A stretch of DNA of 64,000 nt, taken from the NCBI GenBank assembly GCA_963833575.1, contig CAWHXY010000007.1, positions 1 to 64,000 of the forward strand. Direction: 5' to 3'. A program made the position numbers and the translations under genes. This document shows positions 1,788 to 21,093 of this stretch, piece by piece. The notes under the pieces were generated by a model. It was not told where the DNA came from, ran no database searches, and saw only the letters and a list, made by a program, of their open reading frames with translations. Positions within the stretch are counted from its first letter, which is position 1. Every line of letters begins with the position of its first letter. Origin of the DNA: Candidatus Bathyarchaeota archaeon (GTDB lineage Archaea; Thermoproteota; Bathyarchaeia; Bathyarchaeales; Bathycorpusculaceae).

Positions 1788-1788
1788 G

Positions 1789-3519: not shown

Positions 3520-3528
3520 GGCGCAAAT

Positions 3529-4476: not shown

Positions 4477-4478
4477 TC

Positions 4479-5384
4479 ATGAGCCTAATTCAAGGAGCCA
4501 CAATCACCGTTTACGACAACAACGGCATATTGATTTTTAGTGGAACCTCAGACGCCAACGGAGAAGTAAGCATTTCCGCACTTGACCGCGGAATATACAA
4601 CATTCAAATTTCAAAGAACGGCTACGCAACAACAACTTACGCTATCAACATTATCGAGTATAAAACGTACGTCCTTAACCTTCCAGCAACATCAAACACA
4701 ATTTACGCAATGATGGTGACGGAAACTATGGCAGAAATGCCCGCCATTTCAAAAAACACTTCGGTAACTCAAACCTTAACTGAAAATCCTTCAGTAGCGT
4801 TGGGCTCAGCTTATCCATATTCTAACCCAACCATGAGCGTTATCCCAACCGTAATCAAGTTACCAGCCACATGGCGCTTAATCATTTGTTTTCTCTATCC
4901 AGACGGCGGATTAATTACAGGAACCTTCACCCCAAACGGAGCCCCAACATACATCGTTGACACTGCAAGCGGGAGCACACTCGTCACAACAGCCACAACC
5001 AAACAATTCAACCTCTACAGCTACGAGAAGCTCAACGGCGGAGCAAACTTAAACGACAACAGCAGCATCCATTTTGAAGCCGTCAACACCGCTCACAGTT
5101 ATACCGTTTCAGCTCAAACTGCGGGCTCCATTCAATCATTCCTTGTCGCATTCAAATCAGCCTGGGAAATGGCGACTTCAGCAAGCGGTCCAGGGACTCT
5201 CAACTATGCTGGAACTTATGAAGTTGAAGATGGGTATAGTTTTGCAGTAACGGCAACCGCTAACAGCGGTCACGTCTTTTTGCGTTGGGAATTTGACGGG
5301 GAAGTAGTGTCGACGTCTACAAGTTACACTTGTCCGGTTCAACAACGCGGTACCAGTCACACATTGATAGCAATCTTCATGTAA
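4479..5384 (+). CDS. Putative tail fibre/adhesin, paralogue of 3529-4476
   Basis: IQGATITV...TSDANGEV...GIYNIQISKNGY; C-terminal ATANSGHVFLRWE (InlB B-repeat-like); shares TENP, AWE and RGTSHT motifs with the upstream gene. Confidence 0.55.
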   Translation: MSLIQGATITVYDNNGILIFSGTSDANGEVSISALDRGIYNIQISKNGYATTTYAINIIEYKTYVLNLPATSNTIYAMMVTETMAEMPAISKNTSVTQTLTENPSVALGSAYPYSNPTMSVIPTVIKLPATWRLIICFLYPDGGLITGTFTPNGAPTYIVDTASGSTLVTTATTKQFNLYSYEKLNGGANLNDNSSIHFEAVNTAHSYTVSAQTAGSIQSFLVAFKSAWEMATSASGPGTLNYAGTYEVEDGYSFAVTATANSGHVFLRWEFDGEVVSTSTSYTCPVQQRGTSHTLIAIFM

Positions 5385-5410
5385 GGAGTAGAAAAACAGG
5401 AGGTGGTATA

Positions 5411-6184
5411 TTGGCAAAATGGGAAGATGATTTGATAGAAGACATACTCAAAGGCGAGCATTGGGAAGATAATTTATCCGGGTTGAAGTGGACGCCTAAA
5501 CTGAAAGAGGCTGTACTGAACAAGCATACGTTAGACATTAGAGAATGGCGAGCTGAAGATGAACTAGTACAATTAAAGAAAGTCAAGACACTCAAGGACA
5601 TCAAAGCTTTCAAAAATCAGGCGCTTCCAAGAATGATTGACGCCTCATGCGTAGCCGTACTAAAAAGCATGAAGGACTTAAGAATCAAAGAAATTGGGTT
5701 CAATCGAGCAGACGATATGTTCCTAAACAACTGGGGAAACGCTATCGCCTGCGGCATCCATGGCAACACTGGCGCCATTTATCCCTACACACTGTATAAC
5801 CTAACAAATAGCGCAGTCAGCGCGGGCGGAGCAAGTTTTTCTTTTATGAGTGGATCCACAAACAATTATTTCTTGATCCAATTTGGTGCTGGAACAACAG
5901 CTGCTGCGAAAACAAACTACAACATCCAAACGGCATTCGTGACTACACCTGAAAGCACAAGATTCAACTGCGGTCCAGGAGCATATGCAGGCGGAACCAT
6001 CAGCTTTGGCAACCTAATTGCAGCAGGCGGATCAGGAACTGTCAATGAAATAGGACTTTTCACATACTTCTACTACACAGCCAGCGTCTACGATACTTTT
6101 ATGGTAACTCATGACATTCTCGGAGCAGGCGTAGCATTTGTAGCAGGCAACCCTCTCGTCGGAACTTTCGCTATTAGCATCTAA
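5411..6184 (+). CDS. Putative tail collar/fibre-associated protein
   Basis: TTG start after strong SD GGAGGTGG; FGAGTTAAAKT...GTVNEIGLF resembles phage tail-collar motifs. Confidence 0.5.
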   Translation: MAKWEDDLIEDILKGEHWEDNLSGLKWTPKLKEAVLNKHTLDIREWRAEDELVQLKKVKTLKDIKAFKNQALPRMIDASCVAVLKSMKDLRIKEIGFNRADDMFLNNWGNAIACGIHGNTGAIYPYTLYNLTNSAVSAGGASFSFMSGSTNNYFLIQFGAGTTAAAKTNYNIQTAFVTTPESTRFNCGPGAYAGGTISFGNLIAAGGSGTVNEIGLFTYFYYTASVYDTFMVTHDILGAGVAFVAGNPLVGTFAISI

Positions 6185-6313: not shown

Positions 6314-6700
6314 ATGGATATCTCACCATATTACGGAATACTCTTTGCCCTAGCCATGGCAATCTTCACAGCACTACTCTCCTGGAAACTAAGCGGAGAA
6401 GTTTTTAGCGAAACCAAATTCCTACGATTAGTTCTTGCGTCTTTTGCACTGGCATTAGGATTCAACATCTCAGGCACACCCTTAGCAAACGTTGCAGTCA
6501 ACCCATTCGCATCAGCCCTAGCAGGATTACTCTTTAGCAAAGGACTCAACTACATCAAAGAAGTCCCAACCCAACTACTACCCCAAATAGAAGGCATCGT
6601 TACTGAAGCGGCAAAACAAATACCTGCCTCGGATCCAATAACTGCACCCGCATCTGCTACTTTTCCTGCTTCAGTTCTTGCATCATCGACTAATGATTAA
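6314..6700 (+). CDS. Small membrane protein, holin-like position
   Basis: SD GGAGGTGA; about 3 hydrophobic segments plus hydrophilic tail; last gene of the tail operon. Confidence 0.5.
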   Translation: MDISPYYGILFALAMAIFTALLSWKLSGEVFSETKFLRLVLASFALALGFNISGTPLANVAVNPFASALAGLLFSKGLNYIKEVPTQLLPQIEGIVTEAAKQIPASDPITAPASATFPASVLASSTND

Positions 6701-6704
6701 AAAT

Positions 6705-6738
6705 TATGTTTGTTTTTTCTTTCTTTTTTTCTTTTTTC
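6705..6738 (+). terminator. Oligo-T archaeal terminator ending the viral late operon
   Basis: tttgttttttctttcttttttttcttttttc immediately after the stop at 6700. Confidence 0.6.
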
Positions 6739-6834
6739 GGCAATTAATTTTTGTTTTAGCGAAAGCTATCTGCATTCATGGTTTTTATTGAAAGCATTTA
6801 TAGTTGACATTATATATTTTATTAACTGAGCTTT

Positions 6835-7284
6835 ATGTCTGAAAAAACAGTTTCAATTCTCAGAGCTCTGGGAAATCCCAACAAGGCCAAGATAATCGCC
6901 CACTTAGCAAAACATAGAGGAGAGACCGCGGAAGGCATTGGAAAACATTTAGGATATCCACTACCAACTGTCTACAAGTACCTACGGGAGCTTGAAGCTG
7001 CAAGAACAGTTGAGAGCGAAGCAAAAGGCAATACACGAGTATATTTTGCTTGCGACTTCAAGCTTGAGGTTTCGCCAGAGAAGTTGATGGAAGCGTTCGA
7101 GGAACATACGATGACAGATCTTTACAGAGGCAGGTTTGGAGATGAGGGCATAAATAAGCTTAACGAAGTTACAGCTAAGGTGAAAGCTGGAAAGATGACT
7201 TTCAGACAAGCAGCCGCGACTCTGGGAATAACCTACTATGAATTTGTCTCACTTCTAGATGAAGCCGGCGCACTCGATGCCTAA
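6835..7284 (+). CDS. Putative antitoxin: ArsR-like wHTH fused to UPF0175-like C-terminal HTH
   Basis: ALGNPNKAKII...PLPTVYKYLRELE (ArsR-type); GKMTFRQAAATLGITYYEFVSLL (UPF0175-like); overlaps the PIN gene. Confidence 0.7.
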   Translation: MSEKTVSILRALGNPNKAKIIAHLAKHRGETAEGIGKHLGYPLPTVYKYLRELEAARTVESEAKGNTRVYFACDFKLEVSPEKLMEAFEEHTMTDLYRGRFGDEGINKLNEVTAKVKAGKMTFRQAAATLGITYYEFVSLLDEAGALDA

Positions 7285-7774
7285 TTGTCTGGTGGTAGAT
7301 TCATCAATTCTTATATTCTTTGATAGGAAAGGGCAATTGGAAGCATTCTTGAGACTAAAAAAGAAAGAAAACTATAAAGTTATTATCCCAAAAGCGATAG
7401 CGCGGGAAGTCATTGATGAGCCAAAAGAGTTTGCAGAAAAAATCAAAAAAACAGTTCCAGAGTTGGCAATCAAAATATCAGATTCTGTTGTGAGGATTAG
7501 CACTGCTATTGAGCAAGGGCTCATTGAGGTTGAAACGGTGAACTATAGAAAGTATTCGAAAGTGATGGATAATGTCAGGAAACATTTGAGTAAGCTGGAG
7601 GCAAAGCCAGAATATGCTATAAAGAAGGGCGATCCAGAACTCATAGCATTGGTTATTCAGCTCTATGATGAAACTAAAGAAAAGGTCTTTGTCGCAACGT
7701 TGGATAAGGGACTGCAAAAGGCACTTAAGCCGTTTAGCGGTGAAGTTGAATATGGACTCTTAGAGACGCTATGA
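7277..7774 (+). CDS. PIN-domain (VapC/DUF3368-like) ribonuclease toxin
   Basis: LVVDSSILI, IPKAIAREV, GDPELIAL, VATLDKGL acidic PIN motifs. Confidence 0.8.
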   Translation: MPNCLVVDSSILIFFDRKGQLEAFLRLKKKENYKVIIPKAIAREVIDEPKEFAEKIKKTVPELAIKISDSVVRISTAIEQGLIEVETVNYRKYSKVMDNVRKHLSKLEAKPEYAIKKGDPELIALVIQLYDETKEKVFVATLDKGLQKALKPFSGEVEYGLLETL

Positions 7775-7818
7775 CCATTTTGCCATGTTCTAACATGGAG
7801 TATTAAGTAATGCCCTCT
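7773..7818 (+). repeat. Degenerate junction motif B
   Basis: gaccattttgcca...tgccctct overlapping the PIN stop codon; internal hairpin ccatgtt-ct-aacatgg. Confidence 0.4.
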
Positions 7819-7868
7819 AATAAGATAACGAGACGTTAAAGGTAAATTTGCAAAAAGGGAGGGGTGGG

Positions 7869-9425
7869 ATGAAAAAAAGGTTAGCAATAGTTTTGTCGAT
7901 TGTAATAATCAGCGTTATTGCTGTTTCATCGTTTGCCGCTATAGAAGATTACTTACCTTACTGCAATCATGTTAAAGCAAAGAAGCCATTTTATGTAGGA
8001 GTTAACTACTACGGGGATTCCGTAACTGATGCCGAGCAATTAATCGATAAGGTCAAGAATTACACTAACCTGTTTGTCTTGCAGTCTGGCCCTTTAATGT
8101 ATAACGCTAATGCTTCTGAACAAATATGTGATTATGCAGTCAAGGCAGGACTAAATATCATCATAAGTGGAAGCACCAACAGTTTAGGCAACAACTTAAA
8201 CGATATACTTGATGTTGCTCTTGAACGTTGGCAAAGTCACTTTCTTGGCTTGTACTTTAATGATGAACCAGCAGGTCGTATGCTTGATTCTGCCATTATG
8301 TTTCTTAACGATAACAATACAAGCGTTAGTATATCAAAAAAGTCTGACATACTGCTTGATTCTCCCTTATCCATTCTTGACGATAAGAATTCTGACATAA
8401 TCATTTCATTTAGTAACCAGTCAGGGGTGGGGTTGAATATAATTTCAACTCAGTATAGCTTTGACATTGTTTCAGGAATAATAACTAAAATAACAACAAT
8501 TTCAACGACTACTCCACACGATTCAATTCCCACGGTTACTAATATAACGATAAATGGAACGCCTGTAATACCTGACAAAACAGTTTACTATCCTAATGGC
8601 ACGATTACGTATGAAACCGATACAACGCTTATCTATGAGCCAAACGGAGAAGTTTTTGATGGAAACGGTCAGGTTATAACTAATCAGGGACCCATTTCAC
8701 AGTTTGAACCCTACCAACAAGTCTGGAATTTAAATCCACTTCTAAATGACACTGACATAGCTAAATTGTATGTAAAAAACCTACAAAATACCTTATCGTC
8801 AATTGGTAATCAATCTTATGTTAACCTCTTCACATCAGACTATTCCCTATACTGGTTCGACTATCTTGGTGGGTATAATACCGTATTTGCCGAACTATTT
8901 GGTCAGCAAACTGACGCCCAAACTTTAGCTTTAGTCAAAGGCGCCTCAGATATGCAAGGTAAAAGTTGGGGAGTGATGATAGAGCCAGCAAGCCAATTAC
9001 CGCTTAACCTTCAAACGGGTGACAAAATATACAATGAGCTACAACAAACATATGAAGATGGAGCTGAATTTGGCGTAGTCTTCAACTACGCACCAAACAG
9101 CAACAGTATTGGCCTTTTACAGGATCAGCAGTTTAACGCAATCCAAAAGTTTTGGACGGATGTGGTTCAGAATCCCAAAGTAACCAATAATGTGAAAGGA
9201 CAGGATGCGTTATTTCTTCCAAGTGACTATGGCTCAGGCTTGCGAAGCCCAACTGATTCTGAATGGGGTATATGGCATCCTGATAGCTCCCAGCAAGTTT
9301 GGAACTCAATGCAGGCATCACTTGCCAAATATGGGTCTAAACTTGACATAGGCTACAATGCTCCAAATGTCTCGAACGCTGGAAAATTCCAGCACATCAT
9401 TTACTGGAATCAAACAATTGATTAA
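7869..9425 (+). CDS. Secreted TIM-barrel/glycoside hydrolase-like protein, paralogue of 21215-22567
   Basis: N-terminal signal anchor; FLGLYFNDEP, LFTSDYSLYWFDY, VFAE and WGVMI blocks shared with 21215-22567. Confidence 0.65.
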   Translation: MKKRLAIVLSIVIISVIAVSSFAAIEDYLPYCNHVKAKKPFYVGVNYYGDSVTDAEQLIDKVKNYTNLFVLQSGPLMYNANASEQICDYAVKAGLNIIISGSTNSLGNNLNDILDVALERWQSHFLGLYFNDEPAGRMLDSAIMFLNDNNTSVSISKKSDILLDSPLSILDDKNSDIIISFSNQSGVGLNIISTQYSFDIVSGIITKITTISTTTPHDSIPTVTNITINGTPVIPDKTVYYPNGTITYETDTTLIYEPNGEVFDGNGQVITNQGPISQFEPYQQVWNLNPLLNDTDIAKLYVKNLQNTLSSIGNQSYVNLFTSDYSLYWFDYLGGYNTVFAELFGQQTDAQTLALVKGASDMQGKSWGVMIEPASQLPLNLQTGDKIYNELQQTYEDGAEFGVVFNYAPNSNSIGLLQDQQFNAIQKFWTDVVQNPKVTNNVKGQDALFLPSDYGSGLRSPTDSEWGIWHPDSSQQVWNSMQASLAKYGSKLDIGYNAPNVSNAGKFQHIIYWNQTID

Positions 9426-9428
9426 ATA

Positions 9429-9467
9429 GACCTTTTCCCACGGCAGGCTGTACTCCACCTGCCCTCT
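9429..9467 (+). repeat. Junction motif B
   Basis: gaccttttcccacggcaggctgtactccacctgccctct, 3 bp after the stop of 7869-9425; hairpin ggcagg/cctgcc. Confidence 0.75.
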
Positions 9468-9521
9468 GAAAAACATATAAACGCTTAAAACAAATAAATG
9501 CATAAAACAGTTGACCGTTAA

Positions 9522-9806
9522 ATGTACAAAAAACTATTACCAATCGCTATTTTTAATATTTTAATCAGCTTTGTCTTTATTGGGACAAACTTATACCTTT
9601 GGAATTTTCTTAATGGAAAAATCTCTTACAATACTTGGGGTCCTCTTCAAGTGGTCATTGTTCCGAAAACAATTGTTGCGGGAGAAGTCACTACTATAGG
9701 TTTATTCACTCCGATTCTGAATTACCCGTTTATTCTCTTTTGGGTTGCTATCGTGGGTAATTTTGTTCTTACCTTTTTAGCTATCAGAAGTGCAAATAAG
9801 AACTAA
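9522..9806 (+). CDS. Small membrane protein (2 TM)
   Basis: Two hydrophobic helices; TATA-like element upstream. Confidence 0.7.
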   Translation: MYKKLLPIAIFNILISFVFIGTNLYLWNFLNGKISYNTWGPLQVVIVPKTIVAGEVTTIGLFTPILNYPFILFWVAIVGNFVLTFLAIRSANKN

Positions 9807-10039
9807 CCCTCAGGTTAATTGGCAGTCAAAAAATCTTTTTTATAATCTCGCATTATTGACTAATTTGATAGGTTTGTTCTGTTCTTCCACCCCTTTATGA
9901 ATTTAAGCCGCTAAAAATATTCTCAAGAAATAATTGCCTGTCTTGTTTTTAATCTACTAACCATAAATCTAAGATTATTTTATTACTTTATTGATTATGA
10001 TTAAACTACTAAACGCTCAATCTAAGTTATAATGGATAC

Positions 10040-10070
10040 AGAGGGGATACCCACACCCATGGGAAAAGGT
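10040..10070 (-). repeat. Junction motif B, inverted copy
   Basis: Reverse complement reads accttttcccatgggtgtgggtatcccctct. Confidence 0.7.
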
Positions 10071-10123
10071 ATCTATTGGCTTAGAAGTAACTTCTAAAAT
10101 AAGATATAGTGAAAATAGCCCTA

Positions 10124-10178
10124 TGTAGACTTTTGAGAAAATAACTATCAGAACGTTTAGTCCAGTTTTCAGGACAAC
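10124..10178 (+). repeat. Junction motif C, copy 1
   Basis: tgtagacttttgagaaaataactatcagaacgtttagtccagttttcaggacaac; close match to 13165-13216. Confidence 0.8.
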
Positions 10179-10259
10179 TTGTTAAAGAATGTTCTATAAT
10201 GTAGCATTAAATATCGGCTAAGAGAATGTTTTCTAGTCTAAGTTGGGGAAGTTTAAACA

Positions 10260-10808
10260 ATGAAACGTAGATACCAGTACATAATTTCAACTATTCTAAT
10301 TGTGATAGTTATTGTAGGTTTAGTGGTATATTTCGATTACAACCAAACAAGTAAAACTCCAGCAAGTACACCGCCACTTCTGTATACTTCCAGCTTTTCT
10401 CCTCAAATCATTAATGCTTCGCAAGGGACTATACAACAGGTTAACCTGACTATTACATCACTTTGTTCTACAAAAATAGCAATCCCCATAGAAAACCTCA
10501 CGATTAATGGCTACACAATCGGCATAAGTTACAACGTTAATGCAAGTTCACCTTGGAGCACATCTGTTCAAGAAAGAGTTTTCAATTATTCTTTTAGCCT
10601 CAATCAATTAATTCTGCAACCATTTAAGTCTAACTCGACTTTGATTACAATCCACTTGACGGATAGTTTCTTGCAGCAACCAACTACATTGGGAAGTTAT
10701 TCTTTAGAGATCAATTTAGGTAAAATTATCTTCCTGTCTGAACCTGAAAAATATGATGTATCATATTCAGGGAGTACTTCCTTAGTAATGGTAGTTACTC
10801 CATCTTAG
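10260..10808 (+). CDS. Membrane-anchored secreted protein (Ig-like beta-sandwich)
   Basis: Basic N-terminus + TM helix, then S/T/N-rich beta domain. Confidence 0.75.
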   Translation: MKRRYQYIISTILIVIVIVGLVVYFDYNQTSKTPASTPPLLYTSSFSPQIINASQGTIQQVNLTITSLCSTKIAIPIENLTINGYTIGISYNVNASSPWSTSVQERVFNYSFSLNQLILQPFKSNSTLITIHLTDSFLQQPTTLGSYSLEINLGKIIFLSEPEKYDVSYSGSTSLVMVVTPS

Positions 10809-10869
10809 ATTAAAGTTGGTTAGTACCTGACTGCTCATAATAACAATCGAAAACGGAGGAACCCTCAAG

Positions 10870-11301
10870 TTGAAAAATAAAAAAATCATAGCAGTTTTTT
10901 TAGTAGTTACTGTTTTTATTGGAGCTATTTTTGGCTATGAATTCTTAGCTAATTCGCTTTCAGGCTATACCAAACTTTCTCTTAGGTCTGCTCAAACCTA
11001 TTCTGTAAAATTTGGCAGTACCACTTATTACATAACCTACTTTTATAGTTACGTTCATAATGGAATCTCCTCATCAAGACCTGTTTTTCAGGTCACAACG
11101 GTCATTAATAACTCAATCGAAAGTTTCGAAGCACGTCAAGGACTTAGATGCAGTTTCTCAGTGCTTCAAATGGTGGTGGGCGATGTAAACTCCAACCAAA
11201 TGATTTTATATGTATCGTCTACCGTTTCAAACTCTAAGCCAATAATTTCTCCATCTACAGTACTAACTGCTCCACTTCCATCTCCAATACAAATTTACTA
11301 A
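10870..11301 (+). CDS. Secreted/membrane-anchored hypothetical protein
   Basis: TTG start after GGAGG; signal anchor. Confidence 0.7.
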   Translation: MKNKKIIAVFLVVTVFIGAIFGYEFLANSLSGYTKLSLRSAQTYSVKFGSTTYYITYFYSYVHNGISSSRPVFQVTTVINNSIESFEARQGLRCSFSVLQMVVGDVNSNQMILYVSSTVSNSKPIISPSTVLTAPLPSPIQIY

Positions 11302-11331
11302 CGTGTTGGAGGAAATGATTTTTTTGGATTC

Positions 11332-11356
11332 AGGCATCGAAAAACCGCTAACTTGA
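11332..11356 (+). repeat. Junction motif A (non-coding copy)
   Basis: aggcatcgaaaaaccgctaacttga, 30 bp after the stop at 11301. Confidence 0.8.
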
Positions 11357-11451
11357 ATCAGCAAAAAGTAAGGGGCAAAAAATTAGATAGAGTAATTATA
11401 ACAAAATTTATAACTAAATGGTCAGGCATTAATTCATAATTAGGAATTAAA

Positions 11452-11691
11452 ATGATGAGCGACAGACATTTGCGATTCATCAGTTACGGTTTTATTATTT
11501 TAGGGATTATTATGCTGGTATTGGGAATCATCATATCTGGAAATTTGTTTTTGAATAAAAATTCGCCTAATAGTTACTTGCCAGTTCTTACGGAAGCTAA
11601 TTTTCTTTACTTTGTTATTCCTTTTGTAGGACTGTCATTAGTCTTTTTTGTAATAGGTAGTATAGCCGCTTATATTGGCAAAAAAAGTTGA
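11452..11691 (+). CDS. Small membrane protein (2 TM)
   Basis: Two hydrophobic helices. Confidence 0.65.
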   Translation: MMSDRHLRFISYGFIILGIIMLVLGIIISGNLFLNKNSPNSYLPVLTEANFLYFVIPFVGLSLVFFVIGSIAAYIGKKS

Positions 11692-11699
11692 AAGAACTT

Positions 11700-11757
11700 G
11701 CATCGAAAAAAACGCTAACTTGAAGCAATTACCTTTTCCCACGGGTAGGTGTTCCAC
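11700..11757 (+). repeat. Junction motif A+B (non-coding copy)
   Basis: gcatcgaaaaaaacgctaacttgaagcaattaccttttcccacgggtaggtgttccac, 8 bp after the stop at 11691. Confidence 0.8.
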
Positions 11758-11833
11758 AGTATGACCGCTAATCTTTTAAGCAAAATCAAAACAAATACAA
11801 AGCGTTGAAGTGATTTGAAAGGAAACAGAAGAA

Positions 11834-12022
11834 TTGGTATTGGTTTATAGGATTTTTGGTCTTATTTTATCAGTTTGGAGTTGGATTATTCCTCTTCCAC
11901 CCTTCGACATCATTAGTAAATTTTTCTTGTTTATTGTTGGGTTTCTATTAATTGTAGTTGCATTTACATTAAATCATATTCAAACAAATAAAAACAAAAT
12001 TGATAAGCAACTAATTAGATGA
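11834..12022 (+). CDS. Small membrane protein
   Basis: 62 aa, two hydrophobic segments. Confidence 0.5.
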   Translation: MVLVYRIFGLILSVWSWIIPLPPFDIISKFFLFIVGFLLIVVAFTLNHIQTNKNKIDKQLIR

Positions 12023-12070
12023 AAAACAAACGAAGAAGCAAAAAGAACCTTTTTTTGAATAAACACATAA

Positions 12071-12104
12071 GATCTTTTCCAGCGATGTGGCGTATTCACC
12101 CTCT
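12071..12104 (+). repeat. Junction motif B (degenerate)
   Basis: gatcttttccagcgatgtggcgtattcaccctct. Confidence 0.55.
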
Positions 12105-12145
12105 AAAATTCCAAGTAATTTAAAAAACATGAAAGAAGAAGTAGT

Positions 12146-13111
12146 TTAAGGAACTAATGCTCTAGCATTTAAAGTTATATTGCTTTCCAATTTAAGTAAA
12201 GTCAACTGGATTAAACTACTTTCATGCATACTGATTGATAGGTTGACATAGAATTCAAGGGGTTTGCTTAAATCTGGGTTCGTGGGCGAAAATATTAATT
12301 CTTGGTAGAATTCCCCTTGATTTGAAACATTGTTATTTGATATAATAGTAACATCATTTCCGTTTGGATACGGATTGCTGTATACATCAGCAATTTCTGA
12401 ATTCGACTTAGCATTTGGTTTTAAGTAGAAATCTGTTACGTAAGTAAATTGATTACTAACAGAAGATGAAAATGTAGCCTTAACTGAATCTATTCTAAAG
12501 TTTTGCCCTTGGGTAACTTCAAACAAAATCGGAATTTCAGAAGAGTTTACATAAGGTGGTCCCACAATCATCGTAATTTGACCTACAGTTCTTCCTGAAA
12601 AATCAATATCATTAATTGTCTGGTAAGCGATTCCATTTTGAAAGTAATCTGGACCTTTTGTCGCAATGTTTTGTAACTCAAGATTTTGTGTAAATATGAA
12701 ATGTGAAGATGAAAATAATACTATTATTGAACTTACAAGTACTATGGCTATAAAAATCAATGAAACAGATTTTAAGCCTAACTTATCGCCAAAGAAACCT
12801 CTATGCGATTTTTTCAATACATCGTTTTTTGATGACACCTTCTCAACTGTTTGAACTGTTAGCAAGGCTTCTTTTCCTTCATCAGATAGGCAATATTTCC
12901 CGTATTCATCGTTTTTTATCAAGCCGTTTAATTTGTTTAAGTGGTGTTGTAGGTGTCCACTACTCTCAATCGTTGTCTTTTTCTTCAAATCCGCAAACCC
13001 AAGAGACCCTTCGCTTAGAACTTTAAGGATTAGTATGCGTGTTGGATGTCCAAGGGCATCAAAGACTTCTGCCTTTTGTCTGTCATGCTCAATCTGACTC
13101 TGGTCTTCCAT
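12146..13111 (-). CDS. ArsR-family wHTH + TM + extracellular domain (membrane-tethered regulator)
   Basis: EVFDALGHPTRILIL...SSGHLQHHLNKL wHTH, one TM helix, beta-rich C-terminal domain. Confidence 0.8.
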   Translation of the reverse strand: MEDQSQIEHDRQKAEVFDALGHPTRILILKVLSEGSLGFADLKKKTTIESSGHLQHHLNKLNGLIKNDEYGKYCLSDEGKEALLTVQTVEKVSSKNDVLKKSHRGFFGDKLGLKSVSLIFIAIVLVSSIIVLFSSSHFIFTQNLELQNIATKGPDYFQNGIAYQTINDIDFSGRTVGQITMIVGPPYVNSSEIPILFEVTQGQNFRIDSVKATFSSSVSNQFTYVTDFYLKPNAKSNSEIADVYSNPYPNGNDVTIISNNNVSNQGEFYQELIFSPTNPDLSKPLEFYVNLSISMHESSLIQLTLLKLESNITLNARALVP

Positions 13112-13164
13112 GTTTGCCTTTGCCTCAAAGCTAGCATGCACATAAGCATATTTAATCCCTCTTT

Positions 13165-13216
13165 TGTAGACTGAAAAAATAACTCTTAGAACGCTTAGTC
13201 CAGTTTTCTGGACAGC
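13165..13216 (+). repeat. Junction motif C, copy 2 (followed by motif D at 13218-13249)
   Basis: tgtagactgaaaaaataactcttagaacgcttagtccagttttctggacagc; perfect inverted repeat gtccag-tttt-ctggac. Confidence 0.8.
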
Positions 13217-13274
13217 CCTTAGTCAAGAAATCTTTACGAATAACCTTTTATTTAAAAACGAATATCTCTTAATT

Positions 13275-14480
13275 ATGAGCAAAAGTCTAGTCCTGCTATT
13301 AATCGCCTTGTTGTGTGCATCTATACTACTCATAGCAGTTAGACCTTCATATGGTGATGTTACAACCAACTCTTGGGTGACTAGAGCACCGATGCCAACA
13401 GCAAGAAGTGACTTGGGAACAGCAGTTGTTGATAACAAAATTTATGCTATAGGTGGTTTGGTTCTTTTTTCCCAAGACCAAGAACAAACACAAAGCAAAG
13501 AAGTTGGTGTAAATGAAGTTTATGACCCAACAAATAATTCATGGACAGAAAGGTCATCTATGCCTATCCCAAGTAGCGATTTTGCAACTGCTGTTTATCA
13601 GGGCAAAATATACTGTATCGGTGGTGGAGTAACCAACGTCTTTAATGAATCAAATCAAACTTGGGAATCAAAAACTAGTGAGGGATTTAACCAAGTTTAT
13701 GACCCATCGATAGATAAGTGGGAAAATAAAACTGCTATGCTTATACCAGAAATTAGCTCTCAAGCAAATGTACTCAATGGAAAAATATACCTTCTTGGTG
13801 GATACCCCAATGCATCTATTGTTGAAATGTATAATCCAGCAAGTGATAACTGGACGATTATGACACCTATTCCCGTTGGGTTCAATGGTGCGTCAGTAGT
13901 CTACGATAATAAACTCTACGCTATAGGTAGCATGAATTGGAATCAACCGCAAACAATAGTGTATGGCCCACAAAATAATTCTTGGAGTATTGAGTGGAAA
14001 TCGTCTGATTTCATAGGTCAATCGATAGCCGTTGCCACCTCAGGAACATATGCACCTCAAAAAATCTATGTATTAACTATTCCGATAGGTTCGCCAACCA
14101 ATACGGTGATTAAGAACAAAGTTTTTGACCCAACCAACCAAAATTGGGCAGAAGGTTCGGCAGTCCCAACTACAAGAGGTAGAGGTTATTCCATTGTTAT
14201 TGATAACGACTTGATTTATGTAATTGGCGGTTATTCGTCTTCCTCTTCAAGTTACTATCAAAATCCAAGTATTACATATTTGGCAACAGTTGAAGAATAT
14301 ATTCCATATGGATTCAGCACAGTTCCTATTTCGCCCTCTCCATCTCCTTCCCTTCCAGAGTTATCTTGGTTTGTAATCCTGCCTTTGCTTCTATCTGTAT
14401 TCGCTGTTGCTGTAGTTCTAAGGCATAGAAAAATCAGTAACTTGAGTAAAGATAAAAATCGCTTAGTTAAGGAATGTTAA
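13275..14480 (+). CDS. Kelch-repeat beta-propeller surface protein with C-terminal PE(L/F)-TM-basic anchor
   Basis: Signal peptide; repeats KIYAIGG...EVYDP..NSW, MPTARS; tail SPSPSLPELSW-TM-RHRK. Confidence 0.88.
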   Translation: MSKSLVLLLIALLCASILLIAVRPSYGDVTTNSWVTRAPMPTARSDLGTAVVDNKIYAIGGLVLFSQDQEQTQSKEVGVNEVYDPTNNSWTERSSMPIPSSDFATAVYQGKIYCIGGGVTNVFNESNQTWESKTSEGFNQVYDPSIDKWENKTAMLIPEISSQANVLNGKIYLLGGYPNASIVEMYNPASDNWTIMTPIPVGFNGASVVYDNKLYAIGSMNWNQPQTIVYGPQNNSWSIEWKSSDFIGQSIAVATSGTYAPQKIYVLTIPIGSPTNTVIKNKVFDPTNQNWAEGSAVPTTRGRGYSIVIDNDLIYVIGGYSSSSSSYYQNPSITYLATVEEYIPYGFSTVPISPSPSPSLPELSWFVILPLLLSVFAVAVVLRHRKISNLSKDKNRLVKEC

Positions 14481-14495
14481 CGAATTCCCTTATAT
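14421..14495 (+). repeat. Junction motif A (in frame, RHRK) + motif D
   Basis: aggcatagaaaaatcagtaacttga then cttagttaaggaatgttaacgaattcccttatat. Confidence 0.65.
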
Positions 14496-14527
14496 CGCTC
14501 CTTTTGTATCAACAACATATTGAAGGG

Positions 14528-15454
14528 ATGATTGGAATGCACAAACGTTTGGTAATAGCAATTATTTTTGTCCTCTTTCTATCATTAGTTCTGGTTAGCA
14601 TTCCAGTCAAAGCACAAACAACAAACAGTATAGTGATAAATCCCGATGGGTCAGTTACTGGAACATATAGTATTCAGCAAGTTGGCAACACCTATACTTT
14701 TATTTCAAATATCTCAGGTAGTGTCCAAGTCAGTAAAAGTGGGATTACAATTGACGGGTCAGGTTACTGCCTAAATGGTGGAATAGATCTAACAAACGGT
14801 ATAGGAGCAAACTTGCCAAGCTCAACTAGACCAGAAATAACCGATGTAACAGTCGAGAACTTGTTTTTAAATGGTGGAATTGGAACTAATGGTGGTGGAA
14901 ACGACACTTTCTACAACGATTATTTCTTGGGGGGTAACGTTGAATATGGTAGTGCTGCCATTTTTCTTCTTGGCTGTAGCTACAATAACATATCATACTG
15001 TAACTTTGCTAACGGGTCACAAATTAGCATGGATTATTCCGCAGCTTTCAATACAGTAACTGAATGTAATCTTCCATCGTATGGAGTTTTGGTTTGGCTG
15101 AGTGGATACGAAACTGTCGATAGAAACTATTGGGTTGACTATTCAACTAAGAACCCAAATGTGTCAGAAGTTGACCATACAGGGGTAGGCAACCAACCAT
15201 ATGTTTACTATTCAACCCAAGATACAAGCCCTAATGGAACAATAATACCAACAATCTATCAGGACAGTCACCCATTAATGAAACCAGTAACAATTCCGTT
15301 GATTGGTTTAACACCAACCCCAACGCCATATCTACCACCAAGAAACCCACCACATTTAGACCCAATAGTCTACTTGATACCTGTTAGTGTATTGGCTGTC
15401 GTTATTGTGCTGTCTGTTTTGCTTTCTATAAGGCATCGAAAAACCACTAAATAA
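14528..15454 (+). CDS. Parallel beta-helix (NosD/pectin-lyase-like) surface protein with C-terminal TM
   Basis: IVINPDGSV, ITIDGSGY, RNYWVDY, GVGNQPY, DSHPLMKP motifs; TM + RHRK tail. Confidence 0.78.
   Translation: MIGMHKRLVIAIIFVLFLSLVLVSIPVKAQTTNSIVINPDGSVTGTYSIQQVGNTYTFISNISGSVQVSKSGITIDGSGYCLNGGIDLTNGIGANLPSSTRPEITDVTVENLFLNGGIGTNGGGNDTFYNDYFLGGNVEYGSAAIFLLGCSYNNISYCNFANGSQISMDYSAAFNTVTECNLPSYGVLVWLSGYETVDRNYWVDYSTKNPNVSEVDHTGVGNQPYVYYSTQDTSPNGTIIPTIYQDSHPLMKPVTIPLIGLTPTPTPYLPPRNPPHLDPIVYLIPVSVLAVVIVLSVLLSIRHRKTTK
15431..15450 (+). repeat. Junction motif A (in frame)
   Basis: aggcatcgaaaaaccactaa. Confidence 0.75.
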
Positions 15455-15574
15455 TGATTTGAACTTTGACTAACCACAGTAAAAGTTAACTTTAATGAAT
15501 AGTCTTTTATCGCTATGTCATTTAATAGTTATATATATTATCAATAAGTACAAGTCTGCTGGAGAGAAATAGGA

Positions 15575-16060
15575 TTGAAGTTACCTACTGTTGTCCTGTT
15601 AGCTATAATCCTTCTATCTTCTTCCTTCGTTTATGAGGTCAAAGCGAATAACACTAGCATAGATGTTAACGCTTTACCGTCAGTTAACGCTAATTCACCA
15701 TTAATTGAAAACTTAACTGCACAATGGAGTATTGAAAGTCCAACACAGCTAAGAATCCATTACTATACATCTCCTGGCCAGTTAACAAAAGCTTATAGTT
15801 TAGACAATCAAACAAGCATACAAGTGACAAGTAACTTTACCCTAACCAACCTATCCATTGGAAAACATAACCTTATCATCTACTTATCAGACCACTCAGG
15901 AAATATTAGACAACAAGATTTCACAATAGAAATGCCTGAACCAATAGTTTATTATGGTGCTGCATTTTACATGGCACCCGCTTTTGCCATTGCATGTGTG
16001 CTAATATTGGTACTTATGTTGTTTAGAAGGCATCGAAAAACCGCCAACTCCAAACAATGA
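15575..16060 (+). CDS. Secreted Ig-like protein with C-terminal TM anchor
   Basis: Signal peptide; YSLDNQ...NFTLTNLSIGKHNLIIY..D..GN; TM + RRHRKTAN. Confidence 0.75.
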   Translation: MKLPTVVLLAIILLSSSFVYEVKANNTSIDVNALPSVNANSPLIENLTAQWSIESPTQLRIHYYTSPGQLTKAYSLDNQTSIQVTSNFTLTNLSIGKHNLIIYLSDHSGNIRQQDFTIEMPEPIVYYGAAFYMAPAFAIACVLILVLMLFRRHRKTANSKQ

Positions 16061-16070
16061 CCTTTTCCCA
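16028..16070 (+). repeat. Junction motif A+B (in frame, includes stop codon)
   Basis: aggcatcgaaaaaccgccaactccaaacaatgaccttttccca. Confidence 0.8.
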
Positions 16071-16120
16071 AGCGAAGTTTCTTTTTTTTGCTTTTAATTA
16101 TTTAATTTAATATTTTGATA

Positions 16121-16180
16121 TTTCACTTTCACTTAGCCCCCCACTGCTCCATAAAGTAGTTTGACCCCTTGACTTATATG
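16121..16180 (+). promoter_or_regulatory. TTTCACTTTCA element plus TATA box upstream of 16259
   Basis: Exact tttcactttca at 16121-16131; TATA-like ttatat at about 16174. Confidence 0.4.
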
Positions 16181-16258
16181 CGGTTTGAGCTGATGCTGTG
16201 CCCACGTGATTTCCTATGAAACAGAATTCAGATAGACGGTTTGGAGGTTTAGCAGGGT

Positions 16259-16537
16259 ATGGGTAAGACTGTTGAATCTTTCAGGATGGCTCTGGAGGGA
16301 GAGATTAACCGGTGGAGCAGCTTCGCTAGAGCCTTGCGCAAGCCTGACAGAGAAGCTTTTGATGGGCTGATGGATATGTGCAGAACGTATGCTTCAGAAA
16401 GTAGCTGCGCAACTAACCCAATAATTTTCGAGCCCATGGTGATAAGCATCCTATTAGCGCAGCAGGTTAGGATACTGAAGCTTGAACGCGAACTAAAAGA
16501 TGCATCGCAGAAAAGCGGAGAGTTAACCCATGGTTAA
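16259..16537 (+). CDS. Small alpha-helical protein of the family usually encoded with PolB2 (arCOG07300-like)
   Basis: MGKTVESFRMALE...W..F.RALRK.DREAFD.L...NP...ISILLAQ matches the recalled family pattern MGRT.P.YR..L...W..FRRALR. Confidence 0.7.
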   Translation: MGKTVESFRMALEGEINRWSSFARALRKPDREAFDGLMDMCRTYASESSCATNPIIFEPMVISILLAQQVRILKLERELKDASQKSGELTHG

Positions 16538-16808
16538 GTTTACAGAAAGTAACTTTCTAGATATGCTAGATGATTTGGAAGAACCAGCTATAATGAAAAT
16601 CTACACTCATATAATTAGGCCGAAATACAAAAGACAAACTCCTTACGCTTATCCTAAGCATTTGGTACCGGTGAGTGCAAAGTATAATGAACGGATAGTC
16701 GAGTTTTTGGGGAGGCCTTTGGAGGAAAAAATCTACATTTTGGGCAAGACAATGCTCTTAATGCTCACCCAACAAGAAGGCGAGGCACCCCAAAATGGCA
16801 ATAAATAA
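16530..16808 (+). CDS. Hypothetical protein
   Basis: Overlaps the upstream stop; SD-like GGAG. Confidence 0.55.
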   Translation: MVKFTESNFLDMLDDLEEPAIMKIYTHIIRPKYKRQTPYAYPKHLVPVSAKYNERIVEFLGRPLEEKIYILGKTMLLMLTQQEGEAPQNGNK

Positions 16809-17252
16809 CGTCGACCAAGCAAAGATTGTAAGGAAAAATTGCTGGCGCTCCTTGATAAGAAGCCTAAGATCTACAAAGATGCTGTCAAATGGACATTAGC
16901 AGGCTGGTCCGGGATTTTTCAAAAAATTTGATTGTGTCTTTGCTCCCGAAAGCTGCCCCCATGTTAGTACTTGTTCCGTAAATCACTAAAAAATTGTTAG
17001 GGCAAAAATTTCTTTTCCAAAAAAAACACCCCTTAAAAACTCCCTCCATTTCCTCCTAAACAGTTGTTAACCCAACTGTTTTTGCTAGAAATTCAGCAAT
17101 TTTTGTCAGGTTAGCGCTTGAGCTACATTTTGCCCCAGACGTTTTTTTGGAAAGAAAGATTTTACCTCGGGCTTAGCAGGAGTTTTTGTTCGGGTTAGTG
17201 TGATAAGCTTGCTCTTCTTTGGTGCTCCTTTACGACTGGGGGCATTGCCTAA

Positions 17253-17639
17253 GTGGCGAAGAGTACAAGCGGTGGCATAAAGCTTGAGGTGTTTAGTGGC
17301 AAACAGGCTAAACTCAACCGCATTATATTTCTTGTTCTTCTCTGCAAAGGTGTGCTTACCAGTTATGAGACCTACAAGGAAATCAGGTCAATCAAGGGTT
17401 TTAGGCATGTGAATCGGCAAAATGTTGACAGAAGGATGAGAGCGCTCCATGAAGAAGGCTATTTAGAAGTGACGGGAACCAAACCTGCAAAAGCCCATTT
17501 TCAGCAGCCACTTTATAAATTGAGCGATTATGCGGAAGCAGCCTTAGAACTGAGCAAAAAAAACTGGAACGTAACACTCAAGAAGTCACCAAAAGAGGCA
17601 CTCAGAGAGCTGATTGATCTCCTCAGATTGTTGCCTTAA
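17253..17639 (+). CDS. Winged-helix DNA-binding protein
   Basis: LTSYETYKEI...NVDRRMRALHEEGYLEV...YKLS wHTH pattern. Confidence 0.7.
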   Translation: MAKSTSGGIKLEVFSGKQAKLNRIIFLVLLCKGVLTSYETYKEIRSIKGFRHVNRQNVDRRMRALHEEGYLEVTGTKPAKAHFQQPLYKLSDYAEAALELSKKNWNVTLKKSPKEALRELIDLLRLLP

Positions 17640-17693
17640 GCGGATATGTAACTTTGTGAGGCTCGCAAAGGGATGATCCCTTTGTGACGATAG

Positions 17694-17981
17694 ATGGTTC
17701 TTATGTTCAGCCTGCAAGACAGTGCAGGTGACAACAACTTGGTAAATTTAATTGATGATTGGGACGTTCTTGAGGAGTATGCTGGGGAAAAGCTTGGTTT
17801 CTATCAGTTGCTCGCAAGTGACGGAATGTTTGAAATTCGTGTTATGACTGGAAAAGTGGGTTTCAAAAAAGAGTATGCGTCAGCTGAGGATCCGGAGCTG
17901 ACCAAGGTTCTTGAGTTCTGCAGAAAACGTCGCTATATCAGAGTTAGCCAGAAACTTCGAGATGAAGAATTTTTCAGATAA
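17694..17981 (+). CDS. Hypothetical protein
   Basis: Co-oriented ORF with plausible composition. Confidence 0.6.
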   Translation: MVLMFSLQDSAGDNNLVNLIDDWDVLEEYAGEKLGFYQLLASDGMFEIRVMTGKVGFKKEYASAEDPELTKVLEFCRKRRYIRVSQKLRDEEFFR

Positions 17982-17997
17982 TCCGGAAGATGAACCC

Positions 17998-18333
17998 ATG
18001 AGCTGCACTCTTGAAGAACCCAAAACAAAACCTTCGGCTGAAAAGGGACCATATAAGAAACGTCAAAAACCCTGTCTCATATGCGGTAAACCGTCTGCAG
18101 GAGTCACAAGCTATGTCTTCCAGGTTGACGGCACAAATAAGATTGGAGTGCCCTTTTGCCAGTTGCACTTAGATCATCAAGCGGTTTTTGCTTCGCCGGT
18201 GTTTGAAAACCAAGACGCATTGTGGCGGTTCATGAAGGAACACAGTGGGCTCTTTAAGCGCTGTGTTCATGGCAAAATAATTTTGTTTCTTTATCCGCCA
18301 AAAATCGAAACGGTCAGCATAGATTTGAAATAG
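17998..18333 (+). CDS. Putative Zn-binding protein
   Basis: CLICGK...FCQLH motif; start re-assigned to MSCTLEE. Confidence 0.55.
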   Translation: MSCTLEEPKTKPSAEKGPYKKRQKPCLICGKPSAGVTSYVFQVDGTNKIGVPFCQLHLDHQAVFASPVFENQDALWRFMKEHSGLFKRCVHGKIILFLYPPKIETVSIDLK

Positions 18334-18350
18334 GTGAGGGGTGGGAGGGA

Positions 18351-18809
18351 ATGGTTGAACTTACTGCAGAGGCGAATTCAATTGAAAGTAGCTTAATGAG
18401 CTCTCAGTCTAGTCCCTGCAAATGTAAGTCAGAACCCGCCCAAGGCTCTGCAAACACCAGCCCCCTACACCCGCTCCTCTATATTCGTTACAAAGATCAC
18501 GTGTTTTTTAAAAATGTACAAAATCCCAGACCTGAAGCGATCGAGCGTGAGACTATTGGCTGGGTAAAAGAGCAAACTGACGAGGTGTTGCTTCTTGAGA
18601 ATGATCGCGCTATTCCAAGCCAAGGCAAAAATGTTAATGGGCTTATTATTTTGAAAAGCTGTATCCTGGAAGCGCATCCTTTGCTATTACAAAATAATTT
18701 AAAATGGGTTTTAAATCCGGCAAAGCCTACAGTTAATGATGAGTTAGCGTTCCGACCATCGGAGCGAAAAACTCATGGAGCAAAAGACTCCAGAAGGAAA
18801 CAACTATGA
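18351..18809 (+). CDS. Hypothetical protein of the integrase module
   Basis: Strong SD; stop overlaps the integrase start (ATGA). Confidence 0.6.
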   Translation: MVELTAEANSIESSLMSSQSSPCKCKSEPAQGSANTSPLHPLLYIRYKDHVFFKNVQNPRPEAIERETIGWVKEQTDEVLLLENDRAIPSQGKNVNGLIILKSCILEAHPLLLQNNLKWVLNPAKPTVNDELAFRPSERKTHGAKDSRRKQL

Positions 18810-20233: not shown

Positions 20234-20394
20234 AATAAATCCAATTAACTGGTATATCTTATCACCTCGAAGGCGTGACTTCTTTCGACGGCGCCATATT
20301 ATTCTTATTTTCAAAAGATTCATAGAATAGTTCAAAGAAGTTCTGTGTATTTTTCGCAGAAACTGAGAATTTTTATAGAAAATGTGTTTTTGAT

Positions 20395-21093
20395 TTAAAT
20401 GGCCGTAAGTAGTACGGCAATTATACCGCTTAAGAATACGCCGTCGAAGGTGCCCGCGCCCCCGATGCTTGCAACAGGTGCACCAAGCTTGGGAATTTTC
20501 CTCAGGTTAAGCAGGTCTGCTCCTATTAGTGTTCCAAGTGTGCCTGCGACATATGCGATTGTTTTTGGTTGCGATGGGAGAAGGACGAGTGCCACTACTG
20601 CTGCAACTATCGGCGGAATAAACGCTGGAGTAGCTATGCCCACGCCTTTGACCGGTCTAGCTACAGCATGAGTTACGATAGCTACAACTAAAATTCCTAC
20701 GAAGCTTAGGAGGATAGTTGATGTTGAGCATTTGCTTAGCAGATAGATGCTCACAGCAGTTGGTATCAGGGCGCCTCCGACGTTGATTGCGACCACTGTA
20801 ATGGCTTGTCCGTACTCCATTTGGGGAATTCGATAGTTTACGCCAAACCAGTTGACAAATTCATCGCGGATAATCGGTATTTTTGTTTTCAGTTTGATCA
20901 CTGGAATGTTTACAAAGCTTCCAACTAAGGTACCGACCAAAATAAACAAGATAGTGACTGGGGTAAAGCCTACATTTTCAAATGCAACACTTACTACACC
21001 AATAAAAACTAGGGCAACAACAGCAAAAAGCAAGACTGCTAAAAGAACGAAGAACAGAAAACTGTGCTGGAAATAAATTGTTTTCCGGCTCAT
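20395..21093 (-). CDS. DUF1614 family membrane protein
   Basis: GSFVNIP, AINVGGALIP, GTLIGADLLNL, SIGGAGTFDGVF motifs. Confidence 0.88.
   Translation of the reverse strand: MSRKTIYFQHSFLFFVLLAVLLFAVVALVFIGVVSVAFENVGFTPVTILFILVGTLVGSFVNIPVIKLKTKIPIIRDEFVNWFGVNYRIPQMEYGQAITVVAINVGGALIPTAVSIYLLSKCSTSTILLSFVGILVVAIVTHAVARPVKGVGIATPAFIPPIVAAVVALVLLPSQPKTIAYVAGTLGTLIGADLLNLRKIPKLGAPVASIGGAGTFDGVFLSGIIAVLLTAI

Follow-up and report, generated by a model that had tools for sequence, protein, structure and literature searches.

The locus described here raises the question of how a run of unrelated surface-protein genes comes to share the same short sequences at its junctions, and of whether a recombinase encoded nearby moves those genes. 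The window, by which we mean the whole stretch of 64,000 nucleotides that was analysed, is the start of a contig from a Candidatus Bathyarchaeota archaeon (G000:C7:1-64000, that is, contig C7 of genome G000). Ten genes lie between 7848 and 16060, two repeated motifs, A and B, stand at most of their 3' ends, and a tyrosine recombinase gene follows further downstream. The original prediction proposed either a dedicated, non-integron system of cassette capture and shuffling or homology-facilitated swapping at short anchors. We favor the second of these and suggest, with a probability of about 0.6, that the accessory genes are shuffled through homologous recombination at short modules conserved at the 3' ends of genes. 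To judge from the sequence around it, the array is the AT-rich accessory region of a tailed provirus at a tRNA-Asn gene. For comparison we used 61 genomes of the genus and an order-level set of 75 genomes outside the genus. Since the compared genomes are relatives, counts across them are not independent.

Nine of the ten array genes are on the plus strand, no pair among them is alike when all pairs are compared by blastp (E<=0.01), and the GC content of 7801-16100 is 35.9%, compared with 40-41% in the surrounding window. The predicted run of about ten mostly co-oriented, AT-rich, non-homologous genes is therefore borne out. A and/or B is found at the 3' end of seven genes (those starting at 7848, 10870, 11452, 11834, 13275, 14474 and 15575), in line with the claim that most of them share such a motif, and neither is found at the ends of the genes at 9522, 10260 and 12146 (minus strand). 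Within 8.3 kb, bounded by the tail genes on one side and the integrase block on the other, there are four full copies of B, one B core and five copies of A.

Motif A encodes a conserved cytoplasmic tail located behind a C-terminal membrane helix, and is not the non-coding site it had been taken for. It occurs as an exact 25-mer at 11332 with a 3-mismatch copy at 16028 (two matches, with none expected from 100 shuffles). Looser copies at 14421, 15431 and 11700, the last with one extra A, were seen in the sequence and in genome-wide scans, and all five predicted positions thus hold a copy. Translation of every genomic copy gives the tail RRHRKTAN, as (Y/L)RRHRKTAN, right behind a hydrophobic C-terminal helix, and the proteins that carry it start with N-terminal signal sequences or anchors. 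The copies in intact genes all read R-(H)-R-K-T in frame, near the end of the open reading frame (ORF). There are about a dozen such tails in G000: this region and C7:625-631 kb have five each, contig C6 has two and contig C8 one. The copies at 11332-11356 (plus strand, reading RHRKTANLN in frame with gene 10870-11301 behind its TAA stop, with no membrane helix ahead) and at 11700-11723 (plus strand, just behind the TGA of gene 11452-11691) are, as their positions indicate, remnants.

The codons of the tail are informative about its history. In 25 A tails from G000 and its relatives, which are interrelated copies, AGG is used 19 times, CGA 19 times and ACC 18 times, and the shares of these codons within their families in long ORFs of the genome are 12%, 18% and 21%, respectively. 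The amino acids alone would allow far more variation than this, so that the DNA of the tails has a common ancestry or has been homogenised, beyond selection on the peptide. Like the archaeosortase and exosortase signals (PGF-CTERM, PEF-CTERM), A forms a basic cluster after a Pro/Thr-rich linker and a C-terminal helix. However, what is conserved in the A proteins is the cytoplasmic tail rather than a signature motif ahead of the helix. The NCBIfam sorting-signal models gave no match (E<=0.1) in 13 proteins, eight of which have a membrane helix and a basic tail. The A tail is a lineage-specific C-terminal anchor and a candidate for a role in sorting or retention.

Motif B is a discrete, genus-specific element. 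Alignment of the copies from the window and from relatives gives a consensus of about 38 nucleotides, (T)AGACC / TGACC TTTTCCCAC GG..GGGTGTACCCACCC. Its start is often the stop codon itself: in 9 copies a TAG ends 1 nucleotide ahead of the ACC core, and in 7 a TGA overlaps with this core. We searched for B with a 12-mer, an nhmmer profile and a sequence-only covariance model (CM). The 12-mer (at most 1 mismatch) matches at 9429, 10060-10071 (minus strand), 11730 and 16059, four matches compared with 0.42 expected, a number that none of 100 shuffles reaches, and the profile adds a copy at 12070 (nhmmer E 5e-4; CM E 1.2e-4). The predicted sites at 9429, 10070 (inverted), 11731, 12071 and 16059 (the core only) are thus real, whereas the copy claimed at 7773 is recovered by neither the profile nor the CM and is at best a degenerate relative. 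The full copies are at 9428-9468 (plus strand, starting 3 nucleotides past a stop; nhmmer E 3.9e-5; CM 26.7 bits), 10032-10072 (minus strand, an inverted orphan with no gene end beside it, found in the 12-mer, nhmmer and CM searches), 11729-11769 (plus strand, identified by the profile and by alignment with the genome of a sister species, G032) and 12070-12110 (plus strand, between convergent genes, found by nhmmer and CM). At 16058-16072 (plus strand) there is only the core, TGACCTTTTCCCAAG, about the first 15 nucleotides of B, followed by a T8 run, and the same variant is present in G032. This core and T8 run, at the end of the array that faces the integrase block, are kept at 88% between window 16059-16109 and G032:C152:743-792, and they resemble a stronger terminator of the oligo-T kind. 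A and B adjoin each other at 11700/11729 and 16028/16058, which confirms the earlier reading.

B is rare and clustered. By the profile, the 2.75-Mb genome G000 holds only the window copies at 9428, 10072 (minus), 11729 and 12070 and three sites at C8:156.4-158.5 kb, a paralogous cluster that also has a DUF7347 regulator and the same operator block. The CM finds B in 29 of the 61 genus genomes, in 1-15 copies each that are mostly clustered, and in 1 of the 75 genomes of the order outside it. Clustering and a position at gene ends had been named as support in the prediction. Of 80 flanked copies, 46 follow an open frame within 15 nucleotides and 17 follow an A tail. In genome G014, 9-10 copies are spread over about 8 kb at a spacing of 0.3-2.5 kb, each at a gene junction. 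B is found in both orientations, as orphans and as one tandem pair (L062 9987-10060 in G015, with the copies 36 nucleotides apart). Palindromes related to GTCCAG-N4-CTGGAC lie downstream of several copies. We consider B most likely to be a 3'-end, terminator-type regulatory module that often has a promoter for the next gene behind it.

No conserved fold in B came to light. RNAalifold predicted no pairs in 94 copies, single-sequence folds of 12 copies are inconsistent, a GGGTG/CACCC helix does no better than shuffles, and a CCCA/TGGG helix has weak support, with 4 of 500 shuffles reaching its score, which related sequences can also give. Rfam has no match at E<=1 on 6500-21000. Other readings of B were tried and rejected. 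A former coding or read-through extension (peptide TFSHxRVYPP) does not hold, because the type of stop and its frame relative to B vary; one gene, L025 9787-10671 in G014, does read through its A tail into B (L025 10622), with CAG in place of the TAG of the other copies. A general terminator of the genome was rejected on the grounds that G000 has about 7 copies in two loci. A candidate pair of filled and empty B sites upstream of a regulator gene was too divergent in a three-locus alignment to decide, and no clean filled-versus-empty pair was found there.

Gene content changes at A and B between genomes, as had been predicted. The window matches G032 at 94% over 11332-11755 and at 96% over 11723-12028, and host-side genes match at about 73%. 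At the place of the one hybrid B of the window, G032 has two copies of B with an additional gene of 94 amino acids between them. In its left flank the hybrid agrees with the first of these copies, in its body and right flank with the second, and the crossover falls inside the common stretch GCAATGACCTTTTCCCACG. A second case concerns A. The match to G032:C152 (94%) sets in exactly at 11332, with the initial base of A, and to the left of this position the window resembles a gene on G032:C151 (80%), which is itself followed by A and the B core. Because a C151-like left side and a C152-like right side meet at A, the crossover is placed inside A. Further, the orthologues of gene 7848-9425 in G012 and G072 have in common the gene and about the first 15 nucleotides of B, and the rest of B and the sequence beyond it differ.

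The same tendency is seen in the ends of high-scoring segment pairs (HSPs) in cross-genome locus alignments. There are 361 such ends no more than 1.5 kb from a copy of B, and 64 of them are located between -10 and +45 of B, compared with 6.7 expected if they were uniform. Counted by HSP sides, 45 stop in B on coming from the gene upstream, 16 begin in B and continue downstream, and 3 pass through it. Homology runs through at 2 of 38 sides where B follows the stop, compared with 223 of 435 at other stops, a control that includes spurious ORFs and draws on related genomes. The B-bounded indel, the crossover in A and the rarity of homology through B all fit swapping at short anchors.

The array belongs to a provirus of about 41 kb, made up of C6:1-20883 and window 1-20281, which lie on two contig starts that are unjoined in the assembly. 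Provirus genes were named through PHROGs and domains through Pfam, and NCBIfam was used for the integrase as well as for the sorting signals. The hallmarks of a tailed provirus are present: terminase, portal, major capsid and tail genes, together with an integrase, repeats of a tRNA 3' end and host synteny. On C6:1-20.7 kb there are a large terminase (E 3.6e-102), a portal (3.6e-28), a major head protein (3.6e-11) and a neck protein (3.5e-10), and relatives of the terminase occur in metagenome-assembled genomes labelled Candidatus Bathyarchaeota or Bathyarchaeia. An intact tRNA-Asn gene is at C6:20884-20960. The right end of the provirus (20247-20296, plus strand) holds a 14-mer at 20247-20260, which is repeated in inverted orientation at the other end, so that a 14-nucleotide inverted repeat stands just inside each end, and the attR site, a 15-nucleotide copy of the tRNA-Asn 3' end at 20282-20296, 49 nucleotides past the integrase stop. 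Host synteny with G003, G004, G013 and G016 resumes outside both ends (on the right side at about 20406). The DUF1614 gene at 20395-21093 is syntenic in all four, and the radical-SAM gene that adjoins it in G003 and G013, and that is broken in G004, is at C6:21031-22488 in G000. In the related G032 provirus the virion genes are 84-90% identical and an array is at the same place. Tailed, integrase-bearing viruses of this class are described in passages of one published paper (PMC10848311).

The provirus accounts for the recombinase that had been tied to the array. This 475-amino-acid protein (18806-20233, plus strand) has an open gene and a match to Pfam Phage_integrase (E 2.7e-7), in line with its intact look in the original prediction. 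On the NCBIfam model NF040815 (XerA/integron integrase) it scores 48.8 bits, compared with a cut-off of 220. No second integrase was found in the provirus. Since the protein is encoded beside the tRNA fragment of attR and is the sole integrase recognised in the provirus, we read it as the integrase of the provirus and not as a cassette recombinase. The proposed linkage of arrays to this integrase clade is likewise unsupported, since its many copies in the genus lie away from arrays. A repeat search over 15900-20500 for direct repeats around the integrase block gave only short, chance-like ones; the att repeat emerged from the tRNA-Asn gene on C6.

We suggest the following mechanism. A, the membrane-anchor tail, and B, the post-stop regulatory element with the next promoter behind it, would be functional 3'-end modules that, being common at the DNA level to unrelated genes, act as short-homology recombination anchors. 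Recombination at A or B would insert, delete or replace single genes, and would exchange them between elements of different species. The 475-amino-acid recombinase would integrate and excise the whole provirus at tRNA-Asn and would be dispensable for the shuffling. The array genes would be individually transcribed, with a membrane-tethered winged helix-turn-helix (wHTH) regulator working with palindromic operators. Crossovers at two anchors, a boundary that is free of motifs and the lack of a linked recombinase in G000 favor homologous recombination over a system with a single site. Both the homologous recombination pathway and the terminator or regulatory role of B are inferred.

A number of observations weigh against this explanation. 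The crossovers can be placed only to stretches of about 19-30 nucleotides, with which a fixed cleavage point is compatible. In at least 7 genomes a short tyrosine integrase is encoded no more than a few kb from an array. The third boundary of the block shared with G032, at window 12028, is a gene end without a motif. Part of the enrichment of HSP ends arises because B is conserved and the intergenic DNA around it is not. Among ORFs of at least 80 amino acids that overlap an HSP, 75 of the 219 that lack B and 6 of the 12 that have it show an HSP end close to the stop. Because such ends are common near stops anyway, only the missing run-through and the explicit cases carry weight. As for the role of B, it has only a T4 run and no hairpin supported by covariation, and TATA-like boxes (CTTTTAA/TTTTTAA) follow it in 11 of 80 copies, compared with 28 of 2000 random windows, and so in only a minority. 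In addition, the terminase of this virus was not found in 5 genomes that bear B arrays, and the 3 genomes with terminases 83-90% identical to it hold 1-3 copies of B, none shown beside the provirus. The array is thus no fixed part of the virus lineage. A linkage of arrays to the terminase was rejected on the same grounds.

Other explanations have to be weighed against homologous recombination at these modules. It is unlikely that A and B are purely functional, as an anchor tail and a shared terminator or signal of the 3' untranslated region, with the mosaicism left to ordinary divergence, illegitimate recombination and gene turnover. HSPs do end at gene ends generally, also where B is absent, one boundary of the G032 block has no motif, and the operators and TATA-like boxes after some B copies mark a regulatory junction. 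Yet an indel flanked exactly by two B copies, which leaves one hybrid, is the signature of repeat-mediated recombination, the A junction joins left and right sides that are otherwise unrelated, homology nearly never passes through B, and the codons of A are more uniform than the protein would need. Very improbable, in our view, is a miniature non-autonomous mobile element, similar to repetitive extragenic palindromes or miniature inverted-repeat transposable elements, that inserts at the ends of genes and relies for its movement on a transposase supplied in trans. B is short, occurs in both orientations with orphan and tandem copies, and has a patchy, genus-restricted distribution, and G000 has one Y1 (IS200/IS605-type) transposase gene. 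However, the roughly 7 copies of B in G000 are confined to two loci and have not dispersed, B has no terminal inverted repeats and no supported hairpin or palindrome, and no clean filled and empty pair was found. The Y1 gene (G000:C7:653945-654303), the only one of the IS200/IS605 type in the genome, is more than 600 kb away and is interrupted by an internal TGA stop.

A dedicated non-integron, site-specific system, in which B is the site of a tyrosine recombinase and genes tailed by B are captured and excised as units, is quite unlikely. The example would be an integrase of 281-322 amino acids with a small acidic partner, and it is doubtful that such a pair serves in trans the arrays that lack an integrase, such as the one in the window. 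By the same token we hold little expectation that the 38-nucleotide B is a true site with ACCTTTTCCCAC as its core, targeted by an element-encoded tyrosine recombinase such as the short integrase and its acidic partner acting in trans. The arrays of B do resemble cassette arrays, for example in G014. In the gene compared among three genomes and in the G032 indel, the 3' half of B differs and about the first 15 nucleotides are common, which points to crossovers in the conserved 5' core. An integrase is joined by a small ORF with an acidic tail and by a subtype of B with a 10-bp hairpin at four loci (one in G014, two in G015 and one in G063), the acidic-tail ORF and this subtype also have an integrase homologue nearby in G034 and G060, and the short integrases are 93% identical between two species (G014 and G015), which argues for a recent transfer of the element. 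The four modules lie at L025 4163-5411 (G014), L062 11888-13055 and L063 18940-19930 (G015) and L067 13671-14906 (G063). The short integrase module is at the edge of the array, and in G014 and G063 its integrase end has a called tRNA gene beside it.

Against this stands the distribution of the short-integrase family, which is present in 49 of the 61 genus genomes, compared with 29 of 61 for B, and whose members lie beside tRNA genes, the usual att sites. A linkage of arrays to this family was tried and set aside as non-specific for the same reason. In G000 the best match to the short integrase has 29% identity and none is near either array. One crossover lies in A, outside B, and one pair of loci shares DNA downstream of B only. 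The occurrence of B in both orientations, as orphan and tandem copies, and its lack of inverted binding arms or of a supported structure also count against a site-specific system. No circular or deletion junctions were seen in the sequencing data, which are too thin to show them: four runs, all of them DNA contigs, contain 0.29, 0.12, 0.00 and 0.00 of the sampled words, in short pieces of low depth with no joints or alternative junctions, and a look for RNA runs gave none, so that the data do not bear on excision or expression. The short-integrase loci keep the site-specific reading alive without supporting it. With no attC-like cores, no conserved hairpin and no consistently linked recombinase, the dedicated capture system of the original prediction seems improbable. 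If true, it would mean that single surface and membrane-protein genes are captured, excised and exchanged between species by a cassette system unrelated to integrons.

Homologous recombination at junction modules has a precedent in phages. In T4-type phages, modular shuffling within hyperplastic regions is mediated by promoter-early stem-loop (PeSL) cassettes, which combine promoter and terminator, as two papers describe (Arbiol et al. 2010, PMC2839356; Comeau et al. 2014, PMC4122927). As described there, PeSLs are likewise short conserved junction sequences in a viral accessory region that flank small, unrelated, non-essential ORFs, they bound indels and replacements between close relatives, which is also found between the window and G032, and the mechanism inferred for them is homologous recombination between repeats. 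The present case differs in its archaeal host and integrated provirus, with B arrays also in other islands, and in that A, one of the anchors, encodes a membrane-anchor tail. In addition, B has no supported stem-loop, its promoter and terminator role is only putative, and mini-circles were not observed in reads too thin to show them.

The array is no integron, since the recombinase has no IntI-like score and the sites have no attC layout and no supported fold. Integron cassettes with attC sites include those of archaeal integrons, as passages of Ghaly et al. 2022 (PMC9668308) report. As in the cassette arrays described there, short genes stand in tandem, mostly in one orientation and each with a repeated site behind it, their distribution is patchy, and most B arrays lack an adjacent integrase, like clusters of attC sites lacking integron-integrases (CALINs). 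However, the attC core pair, R''(RYYYAAC)...R'(GTTRRRY) at 40-130 nucleotides apart, occurs in 1 of 80 B copies per strand and there is no conserved fold, as the original prediction had noted in finding no attC layout. Measured against the same account, the neighbouring recombinase falls far short of the integron-integrase cut-off and has its own tRNA att site, and the array genes appear to carry their own promoters and operators.

Temperate tailed phages have morons and mosaic module boundaries. The array resembles these as an AT-rich accessory block between the tail genes and the lysogeny module, with independently transcribed genes for membrane and surface proteins, and such moron-like accessory genes would likely serve lysogenic conversion. 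Its junctions differ from those of morons in general in carrying a defined, repeated and searchable module. Elsewhere in the provirus, genes for secreted, C-terminally anchored proteins lie opposite the virion strand in the head and neck module (G000:C6:3860-5290 and 7969-8823, L069), one of them with an RRHRKT tail, and these look like moron-type insertions. A search of the literature for the B core as a text string gave, among the matches listed, none related by title, and searches on Bathyarchaeia genomic islands, gene cassettes, recombination and surface proteins turned up nothing relevant. The words 'hypervariable' and 'moron' are absent from the passages on integrases and proviruses in the Bathyarchaeia virus paper (PMC10848311).

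The array genes themselves are diverse, and Pfam names only two of the ten. The first (7848-9425, plus strand) encodes a 525-amino-acid protein with an N-terminal signal or anchor, whose orthologues in G012 and G072 (82%) are each followed by B. It is a paralogue (36% identity over 238 amino acids) of gene 21215-22567, which lies just outside the provirus on the host side and is syntenic in at least 3 other genomes of the genus; this paralogy suggests that a host gene was captured, or the reverse. It is followed on the plus strand by genes for a 94-amino-acid small membrane protein (9522-9806), with a paralogue in the C8 cluster, a 182-amino-acid N-terminally anchored protein of no Pfam family (10260-10808) and a 143-amino-acid protein (10870-11301) with an in-frame TAA before its tail remnant, the homologue of the C151 gene of G032. 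The membrane proteins of 79 and 62 amino acids (11452-11691 and 11834-12022, both plus strand) have copies in G032 that are 94% and 96% identical. On the minus strand (12146-13141) is the wHTH regulator, the first of the two named by Pfam, with a DUF7347/ArsR-like N-terminus (Pfam DUF7347 8.5e-11), a membrane helix and an extracellular domain; a paralogue of it lies on C8, and both G014 and G032 have an orthologue. The other is a secreted Kelch beta-propeller (13275-14480, plus strand; Pfam Kelch families, E to 7.9e-28), which ends in a C-terminal membrane helix and an A tail (A at 14421-14445). The same ending is found in the secreted proteins of 326 amino acids (14474-15454, plus strand; A at 15431-15451) and 161 amino acids (15575-16060, plus strand; A at 16028-16052).

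Regulation of the array may involve the palindromes. A 39-nucleotide block with GTCCAG-N4-CTGGAC is present at window 10138-10176 and 13176-13214 and at G000:C8:162270-162310, a 90% repeat kept in three loci that adjoin genes of membrane-tethered DUF7347 wHTH regulators. In the first block, the palindrome GTCCAGTTTTCAGGAC (10160-10175) is likely an operator upstream of gene 10260, and in the second, GTCCAGTTTTCTGGAC (13198-13213) lies between the divergent regulator gene and gene 13275. Related palindromes (GTCAAGAAACGTTGAC), often paired, come after B in other genomes. We regard the GTCCAG-N4-CTGGAC palindromes as probably operators of the DUF7347 regulators.

The array is flanked by other modules of the provirus. 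The tail module (4-6184, plus strand) begins with a tape-measure protein (4-1389; PHROGs tape-measure E to 5.5e-16), continues with five tail or fibre-like ORFs and has 84% DNA identity to the provirus contig of G032. The virion block is closed by a gene for a 128-amino-acid membrane protein (6314-6700, plus strand), found at the same position in the G032 provirus and with 81% identity to L059 7377-7917. A TrmB-like wHTH gene (6835-7284; Pfam TrmB 3.7e-7) and a PIN-like gene (7259-7774; PIN_12 1.4e-4, below the cut-off) follow on the plus strand and are 90% identical to G032:C74. On the other side of the array, a block of small ORFs (16121-18809, plus strand) upstream of the integrase includes one PHROG of unknown function and is kept with the integrase in an element of G016 (L009).

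Bathyarchaeia are abundant, uncultured sediment archaea whose mobile elements have barely been described. The locus offers sequence-level evidence that accessory genes of proviruses and islands in these archaea are exchanged at defined, searchable junction modules, and the model of B can serve as a probe for hypervariable arrays in the genus. Most of the accessory genes code for membrane and surface proteins and so are likely to alter the surface of the lysogen. Modular shuffling of the PeSL type would be extended from T4-type phages to archaeal elements, and a coding tail that doubles as a recombination anchor would allow ectodomains with no relation to one another to acquire a common membrane anchor.

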